Of a DNA stretch of 64,000 nt, positions 819 through 26,185 are shown in pieces (the stretch's first letter is position 1; each line of letters opens with the position of its first letter). This DNA comes from an uncultured Candidatus Saccharibacteria bacterium (GTDB lineage Bacteria; Patescibacteriota; Minisyncoccia; UBA6257; 2-01-FULL-56-20), in contig CAYWDX010000001.1 of assembly GCA_964456235.1 (NCBI GenBank), positions 125,935 through 189,934 of the forward strand. Direction: 5' to 3'. The translations under genes and the position numbers were made by a program. The notes below the pieces were generated by a model. That model was given only the letters and a program-made list of their open reading frames with translations. It was not told the DNA's origin and searched no databases.

Positions 819-1439
819 CTAAAGGTGGAGCAGTTGAATTTGTCCGGAGCTCGCCGTGTTCACGTTGGTGCCGGCTGCATAATTATTTCCCAATTGCCCG
901 CCCGCTGCATTATTTCCCGAACCGCCCGACCAATCGCTCTGGCCGGCCACATCACTCACGCTGCGCGTGAGGAATAGTTGATAGGTCGTCGAACTGCCGG
1001 TCCCCGATGCGTTCGCGACCACCGTTACCTTGATCGTCGAGGGGTCGAACGTGTTGCCGCTCGCAACCGTCGTCGCGTTGCCGCTTCCGTCGCGATAGAT
1101 GGTGTCGAGATAAAAGAAGCGGGTGTAGGTCGTGCTATTCACCGTCACCGATTGCCCCGTCGAGGTTCCGACCACCACAAACACCGAACTGCTCGGCGTT
1201 AAGTAATAGAGGTTCGCCGAGGTCGTCGCGAGCGTGAGTATGGTATTCCAATTCCCTGGCGCCCACGCCTGCACGTTGCCGAGCAGCTCACTCGCCAGTG
1301 AAGATTTCGCCTGGACCTGGCCCACCTGGTTATTTTGCAAAATGGCGGGCCGGATCAGCGATGCGGCAACCGCAAGAAGCACGGTGCCGATCCCGACGGC
1401 GATGAGAACCTCGATGATCGATTGTCCCTTATGGCGCAT
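819..1439 (-). CDS. Type IV pilin-like protein (minor pilin / pseudopilin)
   Basis: N-terminus MRHKG/QSIIEVLIAVGIGTVLL is a prepilin cleavage/methylation motif with Glu at +5 and a hydrophobic helix. Directly downstream of pilC. Confidence 0.8.
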   Translation of the reverse strand: MRHKGQSIIEVLIAVGIGTVLLAVAASLIRPAILQNNQVGQVQAKSSLASELLGNVQAWAPGNWNTILTLATTSANLYYLTPSSSVFVVVGTSTGQSVTVNSTTYTRFFYLDTIYRDGSGNATTVASGNTFDPSTIKVTVVANASGTGSSTTYQLFLTRSVSDVAGQSDWSGGSGNNAAGGQLGNNYAAGTNVNTASSGQIQLLHL

Positions 1440-10049: not shown

Positions 10050-11087
10050 ATGCACGAATCTTTTTTCTACAACGCGCTCGCCAGTGCGGTAGACGGCGAT
10101 CGGAGAACATTAATCGGCATTAAGAAAAAATGTGGGTCATGGGAACGGGCCTATGCCCTGCACCGAACCATACGGCGCCCCGACGATGCATTCACCGTGC
10201 CGGACGCAGAAAAAGCATGGGCGGAGCTTGAGCGTTTCGATGTTCGCCTGGTGATGGCGGGCGAGCCAGATTACCCGACCCTGCTCAAAGAAATCATCGA
10301 TCCCCCATTCGGCCTCTATATATTAGGGAGGCTCCCAAAGGAGCCGTACTTTGCCGCAGTGGGCACCCGCCGGGCAACCCCGGAAGGAACGGCCACCATG
10401 CGCAGGTTTACTGCGACGCTCGCGCGCGCCGGATTTGCGATTGTGAGTGGCCTTGCCCTTGGCATGGATGCGGCGGCTCACGAGGGCTGCCTGGAGGGAG
10501 GCGGCACAACCATTGCCGTTTTGGCTGGCGGCTTGCACGATGTTTACCCCGGCGAAAACAAAAAGTTGGCAGAAAAAATTCTCGCGCAGGGCGGCGCATT
10601 GGTGTCGGAATATCCGATCGGATCACCGCCATATCCGAGCCGCTTCATCGAGCGCAATCGGATCATCGCCGGGCTTTCTCGCGGCGCGCTGATCATGGAA
10701 ACTCCTGAAAAGTCAGGTGCGCTCGCCACGGCGCGCCTCGCGATGGAAGAAAACCGCGACGTGTTTGTGGTACCTGGCGCGATTGCGAATAAAAACTATG
10801 AAGGGTCGCATGCGCTGATCCGTCAAGGGGCGGAGCTCGTGACGTCGCCCGAGCAAATTTTAGAATCGTATGGGATTATGCCGCGGGAAAATATAGATCG
10901 CGTAATCATCGATGCATCATCCGAAGAAAAGCAGGTTTTAAAAGCCCTGCGCGATACTCGCGCCCCACTCGACGTTGACAAAATTTTGGCGGCGACTAAA
11001 CTGGAACCCCAAACCGTGAACCGGACGCTCGCGTTCCTTCTTTCTAAAGATTTGATTAAAGAGCGCAACGGCAGGTATACAATATAA
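10050..11087 (+). CDS. dprA: DNA-processing protein DprA (Smf)
   Basis: Rossmann-like DprA core (GTRRATPEG...SGLALGMDAAAHEG...RNRIIAGLS). Conserved dprA-topA adjacency. Confidence 0.9.
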   Translation: MHESFFYNALASAVDGDRRTLIGIKKKCGSWERAYALHRTIRRPDDAFTVPDAEKAWAELERFDVRLVMAGEPDYPTLLKEIIDPPFGLYILGRLPKEPYFAAVGTRRATPEGTATMRRFTATLARAGFAIVSGLALGMDAAAHEGCLEGGGTTIAVLAGGLHDVYPGENKKLAEKILAQGGALVSEYPIGSPPYPSRFIERNRIIAGLSRGALIMETPEKSGALATARLAMEENRDVFVVPGAIANKNYEGSHALIRQGAELVTSPEQILESYGIMPRENIDRVIIDASSEEKQVLKALRDTRAPLDVDKILAATKLEPQTVNRTLAFLLSKDLIKERNGRYTI

Positions 11088-11093
11088 AACACT

Positions 11094-13331
11094 ATGGAAC
11101 TGGTAATCGTTGAGTCCCCCACCAAAGCGAAAACCATCGGGAAATTCATCGGAAAAGAGTTTACGGTGGAATCTTCCTACGGTCACGTGCGCGACCTGCC
11201 GAAAAGCAAGGTTGGCATTGATGTTGAACACGATTTTGAGCCGCAATACGTAATTCCGAACAAGGCGAAACCCGTGGTAGCAAACTTGAAAAAGCTGGCC
11301 GCCGATGCGGATGGCGTGATTCTCGCGACCGATGAAGACCGCGAAGGCGAAGCGATCGCGTGGCACCTAGTCACCGCGCTCGGGCTCGAGAAGCACCGCG
11401 AAAAAATCCAGCGCATCGCTTTCCACGAAATTACCGAGTCGGCGATCAAGAAGGCGTTGCAGAACCCGCGCGAGCTTGACCTAAACCTGGTTGACGCGCA
11501 GCAGGCGCGGCGCGTGCTCGATCGCCTGGTGGGCTATGGCTTGTCGCCATTTTTGTGGCGCAAGGTCCGCTACGGACTCTCGGCCGGGCGCGTACAGTCG
11601 GTCGCGGTGCGCCTCGTCGTCGAGCGCGAGCGGCAGATCCAAAAATTTAAGCAGGAAGAATATTGGATGATCGAAGCAAATTTTGCACAAGCCGGAAAAA
11701 CGGCCACGTTCCCCGCCACGCTCATTTCAATCGGAGGGAAATCGCTTGGCAAAATGGAGATTTCGAGCGGGCGCAAGGCAAAAGAAATAATAGAGGGGCT
11801 GAAGGGCGCAAATTACCACGTCGCGAATATTGCCGTCAAAGAAGTGCGGCGGAACCCGGCCGCTCCGTTCACCACCTCCACCTTGCAGCAGGAAGCCGCG
11901 AGGAAGCTGGGCTATTCTGCAAAACAAACCATGGTGGTCGCGCAGAAATTGTACGAGCGCGGGTTCATCACCTATATGAGAACCGACAGCGTCCATCTCG
12001 CGGAGACGGCGCTCGCAAGCGCGCGCGACGTGATCGGCGCAGAATTTGGAAAAGAGTATGCGCTCCCCGAACCGCGGCGCTATGCAACGAAGAGCAAGGG
12101 CGCGCAGGAAGCGCACGAGGCGATCCGTCCAACCGATTTGCGCGCGACGTCCGGCCACGCCCTCGGCATCAAAGAACGCAACGATCTTCGCCTCTATGAT
12201 TTGATTTGGAAGCGGACGATCGCGTCGCAAATGAAAGAAGCTCTTCTCGAACAGACGGCGGTGGACATCGAGGCGGAGACGGCGAAAAAAGAAATTTTCC
12301 GCGCGAACGGGCAGGTGGTGAAATTTGACGGATTCATCCGCGCATATACCGAAGGCCGCGACGAAGAAGACAAGGCGGGCGGCGAATTGGAAGGCGAATT
12401 GCCTAAATTGGCGGAGGGCGCGAAGCTTGCTGCAAAAGAGGTCAAGCCGATCCAGCACTTCACGGAGCCTCCCCCGCGCTACACCGATGCGACGCTCGTA
12501 AAGGCACTCGAAACCGAGGGTATCGGGCGGCCGTCAACGTATGCACCGACGCTTTCGACCATCCAGGATCGCGGCTACGTGGAAAAAGTTGATAAAAAAT
12601 ACCATCCAACCGACATTGGTTTTGTGGTCAACGATTTGCTCGTCGAAAATTTCCCCGAGATTGTCGACCTTAAATTTACTTCCGAAGTTGAGAAGGAACT
12701 CGACGATGTGGCCGAAGGAAAAATGAAATGGACTGACCTCTGCCGCTCGTTCTACACGCCGTTCAAGAAAGAACTTGATGAAAAGGAGGCGTCGGTCGAA
12801 AAGCAGGTTGAAATTTCGACGACGCCGTGCCCGCATTGCGAAAAACCGATGGTGATCAAATTCGGACGCATGGGCAAATTTCTCGCCTGCCCCGATCCGG
12901 CGGTCAAGGTGACGCTCCCGATGCCGGAAGAAGCCGCCAAAATCCGCGAGCTCGAAGAAAAAACGCGCGACGAGCGCTGCCCGATTTGCGGCAAGCCCAT
13001 GAAAGTGCGGCGCGGGCGCTTCGGTTTCTTTTTGGGATGCACCGATTATCCGAACTGCAAAGGCGTCGCAAAAATTTGGGACAAAACCGGATTCAAATGT
13101 CCGGCCTGCGGCGACAATCCGCTCCGCAACGCGAACCCTGGCGACATTGTCTTGAAAAAATCGCGTGGGCGCGGGAAACCGTTCTACGCCTGCACGCGCT
13201 ACCCCGATTGCACCTTTGTGATGAATAAAAAACCAGAAAGTGACGAAGAACTTGCCGAGGCATATAAAAAGTGGAAAGAAAATCCGCCGAAGCCCAAGAT
13301 TGCTAAAAAGAAAAAGATGGAGGAAGCATAG
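11094..13331 (+). CDS. topA: DNA topoisomerase I
   Basis: TOPRIM start LVIVESPTKAKTI, active-site region GFITYMRTDS, three C-terminal Cys4 zinc ribbons (CPHC..C, CPIC..C, CPAC..C). Confidence 0.97.
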   Translation: MELVIVESPTKAKTIGKFIGKEFTVESSYGHVRDLPKSKVGIDVEHDFEPQYVIPNKAKPVVANLKKLAADADGVILATDEDREGEAIAWHLVTALGLEKHREKIQRIAFHEITESAIKKALQNPRELDLNLVDAQQARRVLDRLVGYGLSPFLWRKVRYGLSAGRVQSVAVRLVVERERQIQKFKQEEYWMIEANFAQAGKTATFPATLISIGGKSLGKMEISSGRKAKEIIEGLKGANYHVANIAVKEVRRNPAAPFTTSTLQQEAARKLGYSAKQTMVVAQKLYERGFITYMRTDSVHLAETALASARDVIGAEFGKEYALPEPRRYATKSKGAQEAHEAIRPTDLRATSGHALGIKERNDLRLYDLIWKRTIASQMKEALLEQTAVDIEAETAKKEIFRANGQVVKFDGFIRAYTEGRDEEDKAGGELEGELPKLAEGAKLAAKEVKPIQHFTEPPPRYTDATLVKALETEGIGRPSTYAPTLSTIQDRGYVEKVDKKYHPTDIGFVVNDLLVENFPEIVDLKFTSEVEKELDDVAEGKMKWTDLCRSFYTPFKKELDEKEASVEKQVEISTTPCPHCEKPMVIKFGRMGKFLACPDPAVKVTLPMPEEAAKIRELEEKTRDERCPICGKPMKVRRGRFGFFLGCTDYPNCKGVAKIWDKTGFKCPACGDNPLRNANPGDIVLKKSRGRGKPFYACTRYPDCTFVMNKKPESDEELAEAYKKWKENPPKPKIAKKKKMEEA

Positions 13332-19253: not shown

Positions 19254-20870
19254 TTACTTGTGGATCACGAGCACGTCCCCCACCTGCACCGCGTGTTGCG
19301 AACTCAAGAGGACGCCGATTTCTTTTCCTTCTTCTGCTTGCGTGATTTCTGATTTCTTTTCGCGAAGGTTAAGGACGCGCGCCGTGCCGAGCGCCGTCTG
19401 GGCGACGTCTTCGTTCTTGCGGATGATGTTCGCCGTCGCCTTCTCGCGGAACATGCCCGCCGTAATTTTCCCGCCGACGAGTTGCTTGTCGAGTTTATCC
19501 TGGTTGAAGACGGCGAGAACCTCGAGCTTGCCCGTGACGGCCGGGCCGGCGCTTCCTTCCAAAAATTCTTGCACCGCTTTTTCGAGATCGTAGACAATCT
19601 TTGAGGTTATGATGGATACGCTCTGCGCTTCGGCGAGCGTCTGCGCGCCTTTCTCGACGCGGTTTTTGAAACCGACGATCGTGGCGCTGGTCGCGAGCGC
19701 GTGCTTCACGTCGCCGTCGGTGATGTCGCCGACGGATGAATCCACCATTTTCAATTCTTTACCGTCGGGATGTTTGATATTTCCGAGGACCCGCTCCAGC
19801 GCTTCAAGCGAACCGGCGTCGGATGCTTTAAGGACGAGGTTGAGCGTCTGGGGTTTTTTACCGCTACCGACATTGCCTGCGCCGTTTACATTGCCGGTCA
19901 CACTCGCGCCACCCGCGCCTGCTGCCGCCCCTTTATTATTAGCACCGGCCCCAGCCGTCTTTGTGTTTTGGGCAAGTCTTGATTCGGCATCTTTGCCGGT
20001 CGTGAACGTTTCACCAGCGCGCGGGAGTTCTTCGAGGCCGATGACTGTCGCGGGCGACGAGGCCGGTAGTTCAGCGATTGCCTCTCCTAAAAAGTTTTCG
20101 AGAATTTTTACTTTTCCGCGCACGATACTCCCTTCTGCGTTCCGGGAAACAATTTCATCGCCGCGCTTCACGACGCCATCTTTTATAATGACCGTCGCCT
20201 CAAGACCGCGCCGCGGATCCCGCCTCGCCTCCAAAACAAAACCCGATCCCGCGGCGCCTGGATCATACGTCAAGTGCTCCAAATCCGCCGCGAGCAACAC
20301 GAGGTCGAGTAATTCTTCCACGCCCGCGCCGGTTTTTGCAGAAATTCCCTGCGCACTCACCTGTCCGCCGTATCCCTCGAGCATGACGCCCGCATTCATC
20401 AAATCAACTTTTGCTTTTTCGAGCCCGGCGCCACCCGCCCCGACCGCGCCGCCTACTCCGCCATCGGCGAGCCGGTCAATTTTATTGAGCGCGACGATGA
20501 ACGGAGTTTTTGTTTCATCCAAAATCTGGATCGCTTCTTTGGTTTGCGGCTTCACGCCTTCGTCCGCGGCAACGACGAGGATCGCGAGATCGGCGATCGT
20601 CGCACCGCGCGAGCGCATGGCGGTGAACGCCTCGTGCCCGGGCGTGTCAATGAACGTAATTTTTCGCGCGGCGCCTTGGTGGCCCGCGGGCGCATGCTCG
20701 ATTTCATACGAACCGACCGCCTGCGTGATGCCGCCCGCTTCGCGCGCGGCGACATTCGCTTTGCGGATGTAGTCGAGGAGCGTCGTCTTGCCGTGATCGA
20801 CGTGGCCCATGACCACCACGATCGGCGCGCGTGTTTTTGTACCGCTTTTTGGTGCAGATTTGGCCTCCAT
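19254..20870 (-). CDS. infB: Translation initiation factor IF-2 (minimal form, G domain starts at about residue 16)
   Basis: GHVDHGKTTLLD, DTPGHEAF and NKID GTPase motifs plus IF-2 domains II to C2. Two G/A-rich low-complexity insertions. Promoter TTGATA-17-TATATT lies 9 nt before the ATG. Confidence 0.93.
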   Translation of the reverse strand: MEAKSAPKSGTKTRAPIVVVMGHVDHGKTTLLDYIRKANVAAREAGGITQAVGSYEIEHAPAGHQGAARKITFIDTPGHEAFTAMRSRGATIADLAILVVAADEGVKPQTKEAIQILDETKTPFIVALNKIDRLADGGVGGAVGAGGAGLEKAKVDLMNAGVMLEGYGGQVSAQGISAKTGAGVEELLDLVLLAADLEHLTYDPGAAGSGFVLEARRDPRRGLEATVIIKDGVVKRGDEIVSRNAEGSIVRGKVKILENFLGEAIAELPASSPATVIGLEELPRAGETFTTGKDAESRLAQNTKTAGAGANNKGAAAGAGGASVTGNVNGAGNVGSGKKPQTLNLVLKASDAGSLEALERVLGNIKHPDGKELKMVDSSVGDITDGDVKHALATSATIVGFKNRVEKGAQTLAEAQSVSIITSKIVYDLEKAVQEFLEGSAGPAVTGKLEVLAVFNQDKLDKQLVGGKITAGMFREKATANIIRKNEDVAQTALGTARVLNLREKKSEITQAEEGKEIGVLLSSQHAVQVGDVLVIHK

Positions 20871-20952
20871 AACCCGTGAAATATATCAAGAAATCTTGTA
20901 CTTATCAACCTATTTTGCTATTGTTCTTTTGTTTGATGGTGAGGTGTTTTAT

Positions 20953-21042
20953 GGAGGCGTGGCTGAGCGGCCGAAAGCAACTTCCTGCTAAGAAGTTAAG
21001 GGAGCAATCCCTTCGAAGGTTCGAATCCTTCCGCCTCCGCCA
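20953..21042 (+). tRNA. tRNA-Ser (anticodon GCU), the only tRNA here with an encoded CCA
   Basis: Acceptor GGAGGCG/CGCCTCC, anticodon arm ACTTC-CTGCTAA-GAAGT, long variable arm, T arm GAAGG-TTCGAAT-CCTTC, discriminator G then CCA (21040-21042). Confidence 0.92.
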
Positions 21043-21060
21043 GATTACCAACTTTGAACC
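21043..21060. repeat. Left arm of the islet-flanking inverted repeat
   Basis: GATTACCAACTTTGAACC. The reverse complement of 25363-25382 reads GATTGCCACAACTTTGAACC. 12 nt are identical (CAACTTTGAACC); 17 nt are identical across the full arms, with 1 mismatch and a 2-nt indel. Confidence 0.5.
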
Positions 21061-21104
21061 TAAGTAAAATAAGGGTATCTTGGATCAAAGATGTCATCAA
21101 AATT

Positions 21105-22163
21105 ATGAAAACTAAGTCCTTAAACAAAAATTTACATTCAGCAAGAACTGCTAAAACAGATGAGTTTTACACTCAACTTATTGATATTGAAAAAGAGGTA
21201 AAACACTATAAAGATCAATTTCGCGGTAAGGTTGTGTATTGCAACTGTGATGATCCGTTTGAAAGCAATTTTTTCCGATATTTTGTGCTCAATTTCAACA
21301 AGCTTGGATTAAAACGACTTATCACAACTAGTTACAAACCATCGCCTATCGCTAACACGCAATTAGGTTTATTCGGGAATGATAAGACTCTCGCAAAGAT
21401 AAAAGGTCGCCCTAAGGTAACTGCTAACAAATTTATCATTAATGAAGCGAAAGATATTGACGGTGATGGCGAATTCAACTTGAAAGACGTTGCTAATCAG
21501 TTAAAGGCAAACAAAAATAACGAGTGGACACCCCTTGAAGGAGATGGTGATTTTCGTAGTGAGGAATCCATAAATTTACTTAAACAATCCGATATTATTG
21601 TAACTAATCCACCATTTTCTTTATTCCGTGAATATCTAGCACAATTAATTGAATACAATAAAAAGTTTTTGATTCTCGGCGATCAAAATGCGGTTACTTA
21701 CAAAGAACCTTTTGGATACATTCAAAATAACAAGTTGTGGCTTGGTTATGATAACGGCGGTACAAAATGGTTTCAAGTTCCAATGGATTACGACATACCA
21801 ACCGAATCAAGAAAGAAAATTGAAAAAGGTATCAAATATTTTAGCATGGGAAGAATTTTGTGGTTTACAAATCTTGATACTACAAAACGACACGATAACT
21901 TAGTACTGTATAAAAAATATGCACCAAAGGAATTTCCTAAATATGACAACTTTGATGTTATAAATGTTGATAAAGTTTCTGACATTCCGATGAACTACGA
22001 CGGTGTTATGGGTGTTCCGATCACATTTGTTGATAAATATAATCCTAAACAATTTGAAATTTTAGGCATAGCAAATTCCGCAAGATGGATTGGTTATAAG
22101 TGCCTCACCCTCATTAAGGGTAGAAAAATATATAATCGCATTTTAATTAAAAGAAAAAAATAA
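21105..22163 (+). CDS. N6-adenine DNA methyltransferase, EcoRI-methylase-like family
   Basis: N-terminal KTDEFYTQ motif and catalytic motif IV IIVTNPPFSLF (NPPF). Start moved to the ATG at 21105 because the track TTG at 21054 lies inside the repeat arm. Stop lies 1 nt before the next gene. Confidence 0.8.
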   Translation: MKTKSLNKNLHSARTAKTDEFYTQLIDIEKEVKHYKDQFRGKVVYCNCDDPFESNFFRYFVLNFNKLGLKRLITTSYKPSPIANTQLGLFGNDKTLAKIKGRPKVTANKFIINEAKDIDGDGEFNLKDVANQLKANKNNEWTPLEGDGDFRSEESINLLKQSDIIVTNPPFSLFREYLAQLIEYNKKFLILGDQNAVTYKEPFGYIQNNKLWLGYDNGGTKWFQVPMDYDIPTESRKKIEKGIKYFSMGRILWFTNLDTTKRHDNLVLYKKYAPKEFPKYDNFDVINVDKVSDIPMNYDGVMGVPITFVDKYNPKQFEILGIANSARWIGYKCLTLIKGRKIYNRILIKRKK

Positions 22164-22164
22164 T

Positions 22165-23256
22165 ATGAAAATTAATCTACATAAAATTCAAATCCGTAAA
22201 GTTTTTGGTGGGTATAAGGATAGTGCCGAAGAGGGAGTCGTTGCTTATGGCGGTAAGCTGGATATTCGACCAAAATACCAGCGAGAATTCGTTTACAAAC
22301 CTGAACAACGCAATGCTGTTATAAATACTGTTCAAAATGAATTTCCACTTAACGTCATGTATTGGATAGAAAATAGTGCTGGTAAATATGAGTTGCTCGA
22401 TGGTCAACAGCGCACTTTAAGTATTTGTCAGTATGTTAATGGTGACTATTCAATTAATGACCGCTATTTCCATAATCTGACCAATGAAGAAAAAGATCAG
22501 ATTCTTGACTACGAACTCATGATCTATTTTTGTGATGGAACAGATAAGGAGCGTATTAAATGGTTCGAGGTGATTAATACGGCTGGTGAAAAACTTACAC
22601 CGCAAGAGTTGCTTAATGCCGTGTATACCGGATCATGGCTCTCAGATGCAAAATTAAAATTTAGTAAATCAGGCTGTGCCGCATATCTTTTGGCGAATGA
22701 CGATGGACAGTTAGTAAGTGGTTCTCCAATTCGGCAGGAATATCTTGAAACTGCATTATCTTGGATCAATAATGGCGATGTTGCTGGCTATATGGCAAAG
22801 CATCAGCACGACAAAAATGCTGAAAAGTTATGGGAATATTTCCAAAATGTAATTGCGTGGGTACGAAAAAATTTCACAAATTATCGTAAAGAAATGGCAA
22901 GTGTGAATTGGGGCGAGCTATACAACGAATTCAAAGATAAAAAGCTAACTGCTACCAAAATTGAAGCAGAGATTAGCAAATTAATGCAGGATGAGGACGT
23001 TACCAAAAAGTCGGGTATCTATCCGTATGTTTTGATGAGGCAAGAAAGGTATCTTTCGATTCGTGCCTTCACAGACAAAATGAAACGTGAAGCATTTGAG
23101 AGGCAAAATGGTAAGTGTTCATTTTGTAAGAAAAAATTTGATATTTCCGAAATGGAAGCCGATCATATTTCACCTTGGCACGAAGGTGGAAAAACCATAG
23201 CTCAAAATTGCCAAATGTTGTGCAAGCAGGACAATCGCACTAAATCTGGAAAATAA
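22165..23256 (+). CDS. DUF262 (ParB-like/GmrSD N-terminal) domain protein fused to a C-terminal HNH nuclease
   Basis: DUF262 signatures IRPKYQREFVY and LLDGQQRTLSI. C-terminal HNH: CSFCKK...ADHISPWHEGGKT..NCQMLCKQDNRTK. Confidence 0.8.
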   Translation: MKINLHKIQIRKVFGGYKDSAEEGVVAYGGKLDIRPKYQREFVYKPEQRNAVINTVQNEFPLNVMYWIENSAGKYELLDGQQRTLSICQYVNGDYSINDRYFHNLTNEEKDQILDYELMIYFCDGTDKERIKWFEVINTAGEKLTPQELLNAVYTGSWLSDAKLKFSKSGCAAYLLANDDGQLVSGSPIRQEYLETALSWINNGDVAGYMAKHQHDKNAEKLWEYFQNVIAWVRKNFTNYRKEMASVNWGELYNEFKDKKLTATKIEAEISKLMQDEDVTKKSGIYPYVLMRQERYLSIRAFTDKMKREAFERQNGKCSFCKKKFDISEMEADHISPWHEGGKTIAQNCQMLCKQDNRTKSGK

Positions 23257-23263
23257 AAACTTT

Positions 23264-24388
23264 TTAGGCTGGTTGAACAAATTTAACTCGAGGTCTTAAG
23301 TGGGAAAATTTTCTCCAAGCATCTTTTACACCCATTTCATGTAGTTCGTGTGCAACCCTTCCAGCAACTATAGCCGGAGATACATTAATCTCCTTTGCGA
23401 ACTTGATAATACGATCATCAGCAGAAACTCTGTCACCAGCTTTAAACTCATTAAACTTTGCATCAGAAATCAAAGTTTTACGTGCAAATTCATCGGCTTC
23501 TTTTTCTTTATCCGCTAATTCACTGTTTTCTCTTTTCTCAAACTCTATAAACTGGTCCTTTTTACCATGTTTAAGTAAATGGCCAATTTCATGAAAGAAA
23601 GTGAACCAAAAACGATCTATGTGAGCACCCCTCAAACTTACTTGTATAAGTGCTTTATCAGCTGAAAGCCATCTTGTAGCACCATCAACAAAAGTATTTG
23701 AAAAATAAGGCACAAAAGCAACAGCAACGCCAGATTCTGAACAAATCTCTTGTATGCCTTTTTCAATACCAGTAACATCTTTTTTGGTTAATGCCCGCAA
23801 ACTTTCAATTGAGTTTGTCAGCTTATCTTTATCAAAAGATTTAGTCTGTATTTTGTTTCCCTCGATCTCACCACATCTAAGCCATGCGGCAAGACATTCA
23901 TGCGACAAATTACTCTGTTTAGATTGTCTAAATGCAACCTGATGAGTTTTTTGGACAAATCCTAAAGAGCTTACACCAAAGAAGTTTAAGAGATTAAACA
24001 CCTTTTCTTTTGAATCTTTTGATTTTGGTACATAATTCCATTTTGCCAACTCTTTATAGCAATCAAATTTATCTAAGGAAGGCAACTCCTTTTCTAGCTT
24101 TTTATCTCTTTCAATTCTTGCCAATGTTTCCTGATAGCTTCTTTCAAGGCTATTCCAAAACACAGGAGACATGCCGAATACAGCAGAAAGCTTTAACGCT
24201 GTTTCCGGGGTAATAGGGTTCTTTCCCTGAATAATCTCATTGATTGTCTTTGGAGTAAGATCTGTTCTTGCGGCAAGATCAGTCTGGGTCATGTTTACGT
24301 TATCCAATAACTCCTTAAGAGTATTACCTGGATGAATTGCGATATTTGGATTGAAATCGTTTGTAGCCATATGTTTAGTGGTAATCAA
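23264..24388 (-). CDS. HigA-type XRE antitoxin fused to an ImmA/IrrE (M78) zinc metallopeptidase domain
   Basis: N-terminal HigA-like HTH (IHPGNTLKELLDNVNMTQTDLAARTDLTPKTINEIIQGKNPITPETALKL). C-terminal HEIGH zinc motif in an ImmA/IrrE context. Overlaps higB by 14 nt. Confidence 0.8.
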   Translation of the reverse strand: MITTKHMATNDFNPNIAIHPGNTLKELLDNVNMTQTDLAARTDLTPKTINEIIQGKNPITPETALKLSAVFGMSPVFWNSLERSYQETLARIERDKKLEKELPSLDKFDCYKELAKWNYVPKSKDSKEKVFNLLNFFGVSSLGFVQKTHQVAFRQSKQSNLSHECLAAWLRCGEIEGNKIQTKSFDKDKLTNSIESLRALTKKDVTGIEKGIQEICSESGVAVAFVPYFSNTFVDGATRWLSADKALIQVSLRGAHIDRFWFTFFHEIGHLLKHGKKDQFIEFEKRENSELADKEKEADEFARKTLISDAKFNEFKAGDRVSADDRIIKFAKEINVSPAIVAGRVAHELHEMGVKDAWRKFSHLRPRVKFVQPA

Positions 24389-24689
24389 TTATTTCAATAA
24401 TCATGACCTTGCTTATCGACTTTAGATCTTGAGGATCTCCATTTAAATAGGTGATGATTATTCGATACGGATGTTTGATATCTAAAGCATAACATTTTTT
24501 CAGCTTACCCTTTAACGGGTGCAGTCTGATTTGAGGAAGCTTCGATATATCAGACAGACTCTCCGCAGACAATAACTCATTAATCCTCTGGACTATCAAT
24601 TCTGCCTGAAGATGGCCGTATCTCCTCTTTAATAAGGCACCATCTTCGCAGGTTTTCTTGAGTTTTTTGTCTTTAAAGGAGAGTTCCAT
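24375..24689 (-). CDS. higB: HigB-family (RelE-fold) toxin, plasmid maintenance system killer type
   Basis: 104 aa. N-terminal FKDKKLKK, central LHPLKGKLKKCYALDI..PYRIIITY, C-terminal ...IIDYH, all characteristic of this family. Toxin-first gene order as in higBA. Confidence 0.75.
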   Translation of the reverse strand: MELSFKDKKLKKTCEDGALLKRRYGHLQAELIVQRINELLSAESLSDISKLPQIRLHPLKGKLKKCYALDIKHPYRIIITYLNGDPQDLKSISKVMIIEIIDYH

Positions 24690-24792
24690 TCTAATGCTAT
24701 AGGACGGTTATTAGAGTAAATCATTACTACCCGAGTGTAGCAAAACTCACTAAATATGTCAAATGTGGATAACCCAATAGGTTAATGATATT

Positions 24793-24820
24793 TTGACATT
24801 GTGCAGGAAGAGCATATAAT
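24793..24820 (+). promoter_or_regulatory. Near-consensus sigma70-type promoter (TTGACA-16 nt-TATAAT)
   Basis: TTGACA at 24793-24798 and TATAAT at 24815-24820, facing the DUF2188 ORF. Confidence 0.6.
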
Positions 24821-24876
24821 TGAAAACGTTTGAGGCTCGACAAACATTTTATCAAAAATAATTTTGCAAACGCCAA

Positions 24877-25110
24877 ATAGCCACAAAACAATACAAGCAA
24901 GTTTGGGTCAGTCCAATCGGTGATGATTGGAAAGTGAAAAGCGCCGGGGCTGATCGAGCTGCCGCAATCGTAGACACGAAAGCGGAAGCGGTGGAGCTAG
25001 CACGTGAGATCGCGATCAATAAGAAAGCAGAACTTATTGTTCAAAACGCAGATGGTGAGATTGGGTGGAGGAATTCGTATGGTCACGATTCTTTCCCTCC
25101 TCGGGGATAG
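24877..25110 (+). CDS. DUF2188-family small protein lacking a canonical start codon (ATA at 24877; possible pseudogene)
   Basis: The frame is open from 24862 and reads (I)ATKQYKQVWVSPIGDDWKVKSAGADRAAAIVDTKAEAVELAREIAINKKAELIVQNADGEIGWRNSYGHDSFPPRG*, matching the DUF2188 pattern (W.V....a.r....tK.eA...a...a....el.i...dG.i......g.Dp.PP.G). There is no in-frame ATG/GTG/TTG before 24934. Followed by two hairpins at about 25119-25143 and 25156-25182. Confidence 0.6.
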   Translation: MATKQYKQVWVSPIGDDWKVKSAGADRAAAIVDTKAEAVELAREIAINKKAELIVQNADGEIGWRNSYGHDSFPPRG

Positions 25111-25362
25111 TACAAAGAAAACTGACCAACGGCCAGTTTTCTCCGATTCTTATTCAAAGTCGTCCCGCAGTGGGCGACTTTGTTATTCTAACATGAACGT
25201 AAATTTATATTATCCACTTTTTAGTTGATCGAATAATCAACAACATTGTTTCCTTTATCCGATTTTGGCTTGGGAACTTCAAACCATTCAGGATGGACTT
25301 TGTAGATAGACCTTAATTTCTGTATACTTTTATCAAGATCCTCGAATTTGAGCCGTGTTTCT

Positions 25363-25382
25363 GGTTCAAAGTTGTGGCAATC
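25363..25382. repeat. Right arm of the islet-flanking inverted repeat
   Basis: GGTTCAAAGTTGTGGCAATC, the reverse complement of the left-arm sequence apart from 1 mismatch and a 2-nt indel. Confidence 0.5.
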
Positions 25383-25411
25383 GTCCCCGCAGCTGTTACA
25401 CTTACAACCAA

Positions 25412-26185
25412 CTACCGCAGAAGCAGGAACGCGAAAATGATTGCGAATATTATCCGGTAAACGCCGAATGAGGTGAACTTGTGGTTTTTGATGTAGTCCA
25501 GGAGAAATTTCACCGCGAAATAAGCGGTAACAAAGGCAACCAGAAACCCTGCGGCGAGCATGCCATAGCCGCCGCTCGCAATTCCGGCGTGGCTTTTATA
25601 AAGATCGTAGCCCGATGCCGCGATCATCGTAGGCACCGCGAGCAGGAATGAAAACTCGACGATCGCGCGGCGGCGCACGCCGAGAAGCATGCCGCCGACA
25701 ATCGTTGCCGCCGCGCGGGAGACGCCGGGTATGACGGCGAGGGACTGCGCGCACCCAATCAAGAACGCTTGTCGGTATGAAAGAGAGCGCGCTTCGCTCA
25801 CGTGAAATTCCTGCTCGCGATGGAACGCCTCGAACAAGATGAGGACCGCGCCGCCGAGGAGGAGCATCCATAAAATCAATATCGTATCTTCAAAGAAAAA
25901 ACCTTTAATGATTTTGTAGAGAACGAAGCCGATCACGGCGGTCGGGACGAAAGCGACAATGATGCGCTTGTTGGTCTCCCAGTCCGCGAGGAATCGTTTA
26001 GCGTAGAGTGCGACGACCGCAAGGATCGCGCCCAGTTGAATAAAAATTTCGAAGGTGGTCAGGAAAACCGTTTGCGGCAGTTTGAAAAGGTCTGCGATTA
26101 AGACTTGGTGTGCTGTCGACGATACCGGAAGAAACTCGGTCAAGCCCTCGATCGCGCCCAAGATAATGGAATGAAAAAGGGTCAT
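25412..26185 (-). CDS. uppP: Undecaprenyl-diphosphate phosphatase UppP (BacA)
   Basis: IEGLTEFLPVSSTAH motif and multi-TM BacA architecture. Confidence 0.92.
   Translation of the reverse strand: MTLFHSIILGAIEGLTEFLPVSSTAHQVLIADLFKLPQTVFLTTFEIFIQLGAILAVVALYAKRFLADWETNKRIIVAFVPTAVIGFVLYKIIKGFFFEDTILILWMLLLGGAVLILFEAFHREQEFHVSEARSLSYRQAFLIGCAQSLAVIPGVSRAAATIVGGMLLGVRRRAIVEFSFLLAVPTMIAASGYDLYKSHAGIASGGYGMLAAGFLVAFVTAYFAVKFLLDYIKNHKFTSFGVYRIIFAIIFAFLLLR

Follow-up and report, generated by a model that had tools for sequence, protein, structure and literature searches.

A HigB-like toxin gene paired with a HigA-M78 peptidase fusion gene on a low-GC island of a Candidatus Saccharibacteria genome

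The stretch analyzed in this work (the window) comprises 64,000 nucleotides (nt) of contig CAYWDX010000001.1 from an uncultured Candidatus Saccharibacteria bacterium, and carries on its minus strand, at positions 23264-24689, two adjacent genes named here A and B. Gene A (24375..24689) is predicted to encode a HigB-like protein of 104 amino acids (aa) from the RelE/ParE superfamily, i.e. a ribosome-dependent messenger RNA ribonuclease (mRNase), based on Pfam family PF05015, on its alignment with Proteus vulgaris HigB and on an AlphaFold2 model. Gene B (23264..24370), which lies immediately downstream, is predicted to encode a 368-aa fusion of a helix-turn-helix (HTH) domain, a helical region and an M78 peptidase, an assignment that draws on TIGR02607, PF06114, the PADLOC profile PD-Lambda-2_B, an AlphaFold2 model and the start positions of homologues. 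Residues 1-100 of B (24071..24370, minus strand) correspond to the HigA/XRE HTH domain, presumably the part that binds HigB and the operator, while residues 101-368 (23267..24070, minus strand) hold the conserved helical region and the M78 peptidase core. The original prediction had described a toxin-first, higBA-like pair at this place, and both open reading frames (ORFs) were recovered there on the same strand with the domains attributed to them. It had also assigned to B a length of 374 aa and a 14-nt overlap with A, which depends on an alternative start codon (TTG 24388). Since all close homologues of B start at the equivalent of ATG 24370 (MATNDF...) and since the gap between A and B is 4 nt in a 92%-identical locus (L084), we prefer another arrangement, in which the stop codon of A (TAA 24377-24375) is likely followed by a 4-nt gap and then by ATG 24370 of B, yielding a protein of 368 aa.

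The analysis of A supports its assignment to the ribosome-dependent mRNases of the HigB type and indicates that its active site is both complete and conserved. The protein scores 36.4 bits against the Pfam HigB-like_toxin profile (PF05015, cutoff of 27), which is also present in all the close homologues listed, and can be aligned to P. vulgaris HigB with phmmer. Its AlphaFold2 model, built from an alignment of 24 homologues, has a mean predicted local distance difference test (pLDDT) score of 93.6, and its best Foldseek matches are all structures of P. vulgaris HigB, either free or ribosome-bound, with a template modelling (TM) score of 0.77, which corresponds to the microbial ribonuclease (RNase) or RelE fold. 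In P. vulgaris HigB, residues His54, Arg73, Asp90, Tyr91 and His92 were shown experimentally to be needed for catalysis (PMC5027501). Their equivalents in A are H57, R76, D102, Y103 and H104, and the first two are invariant in all 69 A homologues from related loci. At the C-terminus, the motif reads DYH in 35 of these proteins, DTH in 14 and KHY in 12 (61/69 together). Because the HigB catalytic residues are kept and H57/R76 are invariant across the 69 homologues, A looks like an active RNase and not like a decayed relic.

Regarding B, profile and structural comparisons support the view of one compact protein in three parts: the HTH domain is of the HigA type, the helical region is conserved, and the catalytic residues of the M78 zinc peptidase are under strict conservation. 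B exceeds the thresholds of both the NCBIfam HigA model TIGR02607 (62.8 bits, cutoff of 47.7) and Pfam Peptidase_M78 PF06114 (39.2 bits, cutoff of 22), and displays the HigA-type XRE fold. Together with the PF05015 score of A, the profile checks suggested by the original prediction thus came out in its favor, as did its claim of a HigA-type HTH fused to a complete HEIGH-containing M78 domain. The HEIGH motif occupies residues 260-264 in ATG numbering (23579-23593, minus strand), and the third zinc ligand is E289 downstream of it. Among 342 diverse members of the B family, H260 is found in 342, E261 in 340, H264 in 342 and E289 in 340. The AlphaFold2 model of B (alignment of 117 sequences) forms a single compact body with a pLDDT of 90.2 and a predicted TM score of 0.83; structural matches are HigA for the first 100 aa, and CapP and IrrE for the peptidase. 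The only poorly modelled internal stretch is the loop 277-281, and the protein ends with short helices extending about 80 aa beyond E289. The original prediction placed a linker of about 150 aa between the two domains, a description that has to be abandoned: residues 69-211 are modelled as an all-helical fold (pLDDT of 84-98), are conserved in sequence and, with the peptidase, account for the match to PD-Lambda-2_B. The possibility that C104 acts as a CapP-like cysteine switch was also considered and rejected, as this residue is kept among close relatives but not across the 342 family members.

B belongs to a large and widespread family. Of 8,000 candidates scored, at least 4,508 proteins reached E ≤ 1e-5, and 1,193 full-length clusters at 50% identity were found among 1.84 billion representatives at E ≤ 1e-30. 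At least 589 loci are present in species-representative genomes over a wide taxonomic range, and 42 full-length copies are carried by plasmids, with a few more in phages. In RefSeq, these homologues are labelled either 'HigA family addiction module antitoxin' or 'ImmA/IrrE family metallo-endopeptidase'. Of 80 genome loci, 74-75 have an A homologue directly upstream of B in the same orientation, usually overlapping B or only a few bases apart; the same is true of 63-65 of 75 independent metagenome loci, a count limited to those with room upstream of B. The frequency at which M78-fused HigA proteins partner with HigB, a question raised along with the original prediction, is thus about 85-94% of 155 loci, and the A-B pairing is far beyond chance. 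Exceptions consist of one locus with a degenerate A-like ORF deprived of the catalytic His and Arg, one with a different RelE-like toxin of 130 aa upstream of B, and a few solo B genes without an upstream toxin gene (L075 4640-4999, L098 942-1334, L049 and L064). On the other side of B, no gene is conserved across the 80 loci, where the largest cluster of downstream genes has four members. Genes tightly coupled to the 3' end of B elsewhere often encode type I restriction-modification subunits, SIR2, patatin, NurA, PIN or SNF2 helicases. For instance, a gene for a 1,085-aa SNF2/ResIII helicase lies only 1 nt beyond B in locus L089 (5106-8363 and onward), and DUF4391 and DNA methylase genes come next. 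At this locus, a longer defence operon may begin with A-B, similar to the DISARM case of Lau et al.

Upstream of A, the intergenic region contains two predicted promoters and a candidate operator. A sigma-70-like promoter of A-B (24734..24762, minus strand; TTGACA, 17 nt, TACACT, with an extended TG) is predicted solely from a consensus scan, with 10/12 matching positions. Its -35 box is located at 24757-24762, and the promoter region is kept in close relatives. A second promoter (24793..24820, plus strand; TTGACA, 16 nt, TATAAT) matches the consensus at 12/12 positions, faces in the divergent direction and is kept in the related locus L090. Between the two divergent -35 boxes lies the palindrome ATAACC-CAATA-GGTTAAT (24769..24786, no strand assigned), a candidate operator whose sequence has no other match within the 64-kb window. 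In an alignment of six close relatives, the palindrome ATTAACC-N5-GGTTAAT is invariant upstream of A whereas its flanks diverge. More broadly, among 74 distant genome loci, 27 have an exact copy of the core TTAAC-N7-GTTAA within 160 nt upstream of A, and the number rises to 36 when one mismatch is allowed, compared with 0/222 control segments at the same stringency. A half-site spacing of 7 is the only one that occurs in these genome loci, and the motif was replicated in the metagenome set (28/60 versus 0/60 controls). These data support TTAAC-N7-GTTAA as a family-wide candidate operator at the promoter. Its half-site is the same as that of the Pseudomonas aeruginosa HigA operator (TTAAC GTTAA; PMC6987408). 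This shared half-site and the family-wide occurrence of the palindrome provide good, if indirect, support for a role of B as a DNA-binding autoregulator.

The divergent promoter faces a small gene (24877..25110, plus strand) encoding a DUF2188 protein (PF09954, E = 5.6e-14), which also matches the PADLOC candidate PDC-S16 (E = 2.5e-21) and is followed by a terminator-like hairpin (25155..25182, plus strand). In the window, ATA takes the place of the start codon, which is ATG at the 94%-related locus L090; the gene may therefore be a pseudogene or be poorly translated. A divergent DUF2188 gene is present in five of the nine other close relatives (L085, L086, L090/L091, L092 and L094), in differing genomic contexts, and is absent from the remaining ones (L084, L088, L089 and L093). 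At L084, the place of DUF2188 is occupied by an ORF of 92 aa (1048-1326, minus strand) that shows a weak match to the HNH motif (PF01844, 23.8 bits). We considered DUF2188 as a general third component of the system and rejected this idea, since only close relatives carry the gene and none of the roughly 155 more distant loci does. Possibly, it is a co-regulated neighbor of A-B and not an established component.

This arrangement is nevertheless at the heart of another reading, in which B would mainly be a fused damage-responsive switch of the CapH-CapP type that inactivates itself through its peptidase, HigB being only an addiction or back-up element. By this account, B would repress the divergent DUF2188 gene in the window and, at other loci, defence operons located downstream. 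Such a role would agree with the position of the candidate operator between divergent promoters, with the recurrence of DUF2188 in 6 of 10 close relatives (window included) from different genomic contexts, and with the defence genes tightly coupled to the 3' end of B in other genomes. Moreover, Lau et al. reported CapH-CapP fusions, a vapC-like gene and a fusion gene heading DISARM operons, as well as DUF2188 operons divergent from capH/capP-like pairs. On the other hand, the operator and the A-B pair are kept with or without DUF2188 or a downstream gene, the DUF2188 gene of the window has lost its ATG, and B has neither the GAF domain nor the apparatus for sensing single-stranded DNA (ssDNA). 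Taken together, we regard a primary function as a regulatory switch as quite unlikely.

The base composition of the locus provides information on its mobility. A stretch between tRNA-Ser(GCT) and uppP (21043-25400) has a GC content of 36.5%, compared with 54% in the rest of the window, and A-B itself is at 36.7% versus 54% in its flanks. The GC content of A-B is likewise below that of the flanks at L084, L088 and L085, as expected for a mobile cassette with a foreign base composition. A search of 20900-25450 for integration-site repeats marking an insertion at tRNA-Ser gave only short chance matches. The same low-GC stretch includes a type II restriction-modification pair adjoining B (21054-23256, plus strand). 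The methyltransferase is an EcoRI-like adenine enzyme (PF13651, E = 1e-129), and the restriction endonuclease combines GmrSD_N and HNH domains with a full-length match to the PADLOC type II restriction endonuclease profile; its gene converges on B, whose stop codon is 7 nt away. In a 68%-related locus (L088 3682-6670), for which no tRNA-Ser is recorded in a listing limited to protein-coding genes, A-B is located directly upstream of infB as in window 19254-24689 but without the restriction-modification pair, which suggests that the latter was inserted later beside a resident A-B cassette. Inside the high-GC infB gene of the window, a 387-aa antisense ORF (19609-20772, plus strand) is almost certainly an artefact of composition. 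In the locus with a 94%-identical A (L090), which belongs to a metagenome-assembled genome contig from NCBI, a hicAB pair and a gene for an RHS-repeat protein are found a few kb away (10223-10663 and 11624-12315).

With restriction-modification genes adjoining it on a low-GC island, A-B could also be an ordinary higBA addiction module that stabilizes this island, the peptidase being a dispensable passenger. The toxin-first order, the HigA domain and an operator like that of canonical higBA would fit this simple scheme. Yet, about 1,200 clusters (50% identity) retain the fusion at full length, and hardly any variation is seen in its zinc ligands and catalytic Glu, while a passenger domain would be expected to decay. 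We therefore consider such an ordinary module as highly improbable.

The closest experimental parallel is PD-λ-2 of Escherichia coli ECOR42, which contains a HigB-like gene, a HigA-like Xre-ImmA/IrrE fusion and a third gene, and which defends through abortive infection (Vassallo et al. 2022, PMC9519451). As at the present locus, the HigB-like gene comes first, and the gene after it joins a HigA-like Xre HTH and an ImmA/IrrE peptidase in one protein. The similarity of B to PD-λ-2B was evaluated through the PADLOC profile PD-Lambda-2_B, the most specific PADLOC match of B (E = 2.6e-38, profile positions 65-379 of 402). Residues 101-368 alone match this profile with 124 bits over positions 139-379 of 402, and residues 1-100 alone give no match, so the part common to both proteins is the helical region with the peptidase, about 270 aa for which PD-λ-2B is the only relative with experimental data. 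In the plasmid collection, the Escherichia and Salmonella matches listed are all canonical short HigA proteins. Across the 80 genome loci, no conserved downstream family that could be the equivalent of PD-λ-2C was found.

From these elements, we propose with moderate confidence that A and B constitute a mobile two-gene HigB/HigA-M78 module, with PD-λ-2 and RosmerTA as tested relatives, in which the peptidase would trigger the release of HigB. In the resting state, A and B would form an inert complex, and a dimer of the B HTH domain would bind the palindrome to repress the A-B operon and, in this clade, probably the divergent DUF2188 promoter too. A cue derived from phages or from damage would then activate the B peptidase or expose its substrate. 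As its predicted fold is compact, B would most likely be cut in trans within a dimer, at a site separating the HTH domain from the rest of the chain; alternatively, another target might be cut. HigB would thereby be freed and would shut down translation, with abortive infection or growth arrest as the outcome, and the promoters would be derepressed. The distribution of roles, with A as toxin and B as antitoxin, is likely at this locus since A keeps all the HigB catalytic residues. It also has precedents, the antitoxin being an HTH-peptidase protein both in RosmerTA and in the ImmA hub of NetFlax. Autocleavage as the trigger is plausible by analogy with separate M78 peptidases. In ImmA/ImmR, IrrE/DdrO and CapP/CapH, cleavage of an XRE repressor by the M78 peptidase upon a damage signal is established, as is the activation of CapP and IrrE by ssDNA through a groove between the peptidase and GAF domains, with a cysteine-switch loop in CapP.

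Several observations weigh against this proposal. A GAF domain with an ssDNA groove as in CapP/IrrE is not present in the model and alignment of B, nor does B have a Cys between HExxH and E289 that could form a CapP-type cysteine-switch loop, and the ssDNA signal is therefore not transferable to B. The rigid and compact model of B, which exposes no flexible linker, does not favor simple autocleavage in cis, and the literature searched reports no cleavage for any fused HTH-M78 protein. The comparison with PD-λ-2 is not fully favorable either. The toxin partners differ, PD-λ-2A being of the E. coli HigB type (PF09907) while A of the window belongs to PF05015, and the PADLOC profile PD-Lambda-2_A has no match among 69 A proteins (A of the window and 68 homologues). 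The third gene of PD-λ-2 is required for defence against λvir (PMC9519451), and the window contains neither a PD-λ-2C-like gene (PF14350) nor any third co-oriented gene, the ORFs of the island being otherwise assigned. Above all, the PD-λ-2B fusion is toxic on its own and growth was rescued by the HigB-like PD-λ-2A (PMC9519451), a warning against taking the seemingly obvious assignment of toxin and antitoxin for granted.

This last result leads to a scenario of reversed polarity, in which B would be the growth-inhibiting effector, as a promiscuous protease or a DNA binder, while A would inhibit it or act as its sensor. In a variant with reciprocal roles, the two proteins would neutralize each other and the trigger would release two effectors. 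The very strict conservation of the B peptidase active site would make sense in such a scenario, and residues 101-368 of B match PD-Lambda-2_B over nearly its full length (124 bits). By contrast, the family-wide retention of HigB catalytic residues in A is hard to explain for a mere inhibitor, A belongs to another Pfam family than PD-λ-2A, HTH-M78 proteins are antitoxins in RosmerTA and NetFlax, and overexpression of a repressor can cause artefactual toxicity. For these reasons, we consider a PD-λ-2-like polarity as unlikely, although it is the main alternative to the proposal. A more elaborate and very unlikely extension is that A and B are reciprocal latent effectors which, in the candidate-phyla clade, would form with DUF2188 a three-part cassette under one shared operator. 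If this were true, a single trigger would set free the RNase, the protease and the small DUF2188 protein together.

Returning to the proposed peptidase-triggered HigB release, both the architecture and the trigger are already in the literature, the trigger having been proposed for this very architecture by Makarova, Wolf and Koonin (2009; PMC2701414) and for ImmA-domain antitoxins in the NetFlax study. The 2009 survey described COG2856-Xre fusions that share operons with RelE and PIN toxins and proposed for them a self-cleaving repressor similar to LexA. The architecture and gene association of its Xre-COG2856/RelE class are identical to those of the present locus, and its example plasmid, Microscilla pSD15, carries a RelE/ParE toxin gene, a B homologue and hsdS. 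However, this set is purely computational, much broader than the A-B family and does not demonstrate a mechanism. Additional searches of the literature (HigB with M78, ImmA with HigB, and follow-ups of PD-λ-2) retrieved no mechanistic study. The A-B class is thus common and already described, and the locus adds no new kind of system. What the present analysis brings to this class is the family-wide candidate operator TTAAC-N7-GTTAA, the recognition of the supposed linker as a conserved module shared with PD-λ-2B, and a clade-specific link with DUF2188.

Several other known systems resemble the locus in part. As in the canonical HigBA modules of P. vulgaris Rts1 and P. aeruginosa, the HigB fold and catalytic residues, the HigA fold, the toxin-first order and the TTAAC/GTTAA half-sites are all present. 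Nevertheless, canonical HigA is a protein of about 100 aa without a peptidase whereas B is a fusion of 368 aa, and the half-sites of the canonical operator are abutting whereas those of the A-B family are separated by N7. With CapH/CapP, ImmR/ImmA and DdrO/IrrE, the locus shares an M78 peptidase, an XRE HTH and the fold match of B to CapP and IrrE, as well as a divergent DUF2188 gene that is also found at some capH/capP loci (Lau et al.). These systems are split pairs, while B is a single chain without GAF or cysteine switch and comes with an RNase toxin gene. Finally, RosmerTA (Millman et al. 2022), a phage defence system, has an antitoxin with an N-terminal HTH and a zinc peptidase, and hub D25 of NetFlax (Ernits et al. 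2023, PMC10440598) consists of ImmA-protease antitoxins for which cleavage of the HTH has been suggested. In both cases, as here, an HTH-zinc peptidase protein is paired with a toxin whose gene often comes first. The RosmerTA RmrA profiles give at most 40 bits with B, over the peptidase core only, and the RmrT toxins, which are membrane-depolarizing or of unknown function, are unrelated to the HigB-like toxin of the window. Altogether, HTH-M78 'protease antitoxins' are one hub of toxin-antitoxin and phage-defence networks, of which A-B is a clean and minimal two-gene example from the HigB-linked branch and, owing to its identifiable candidate operator and the intact predicted active sites of both proteins, a convenient test case.

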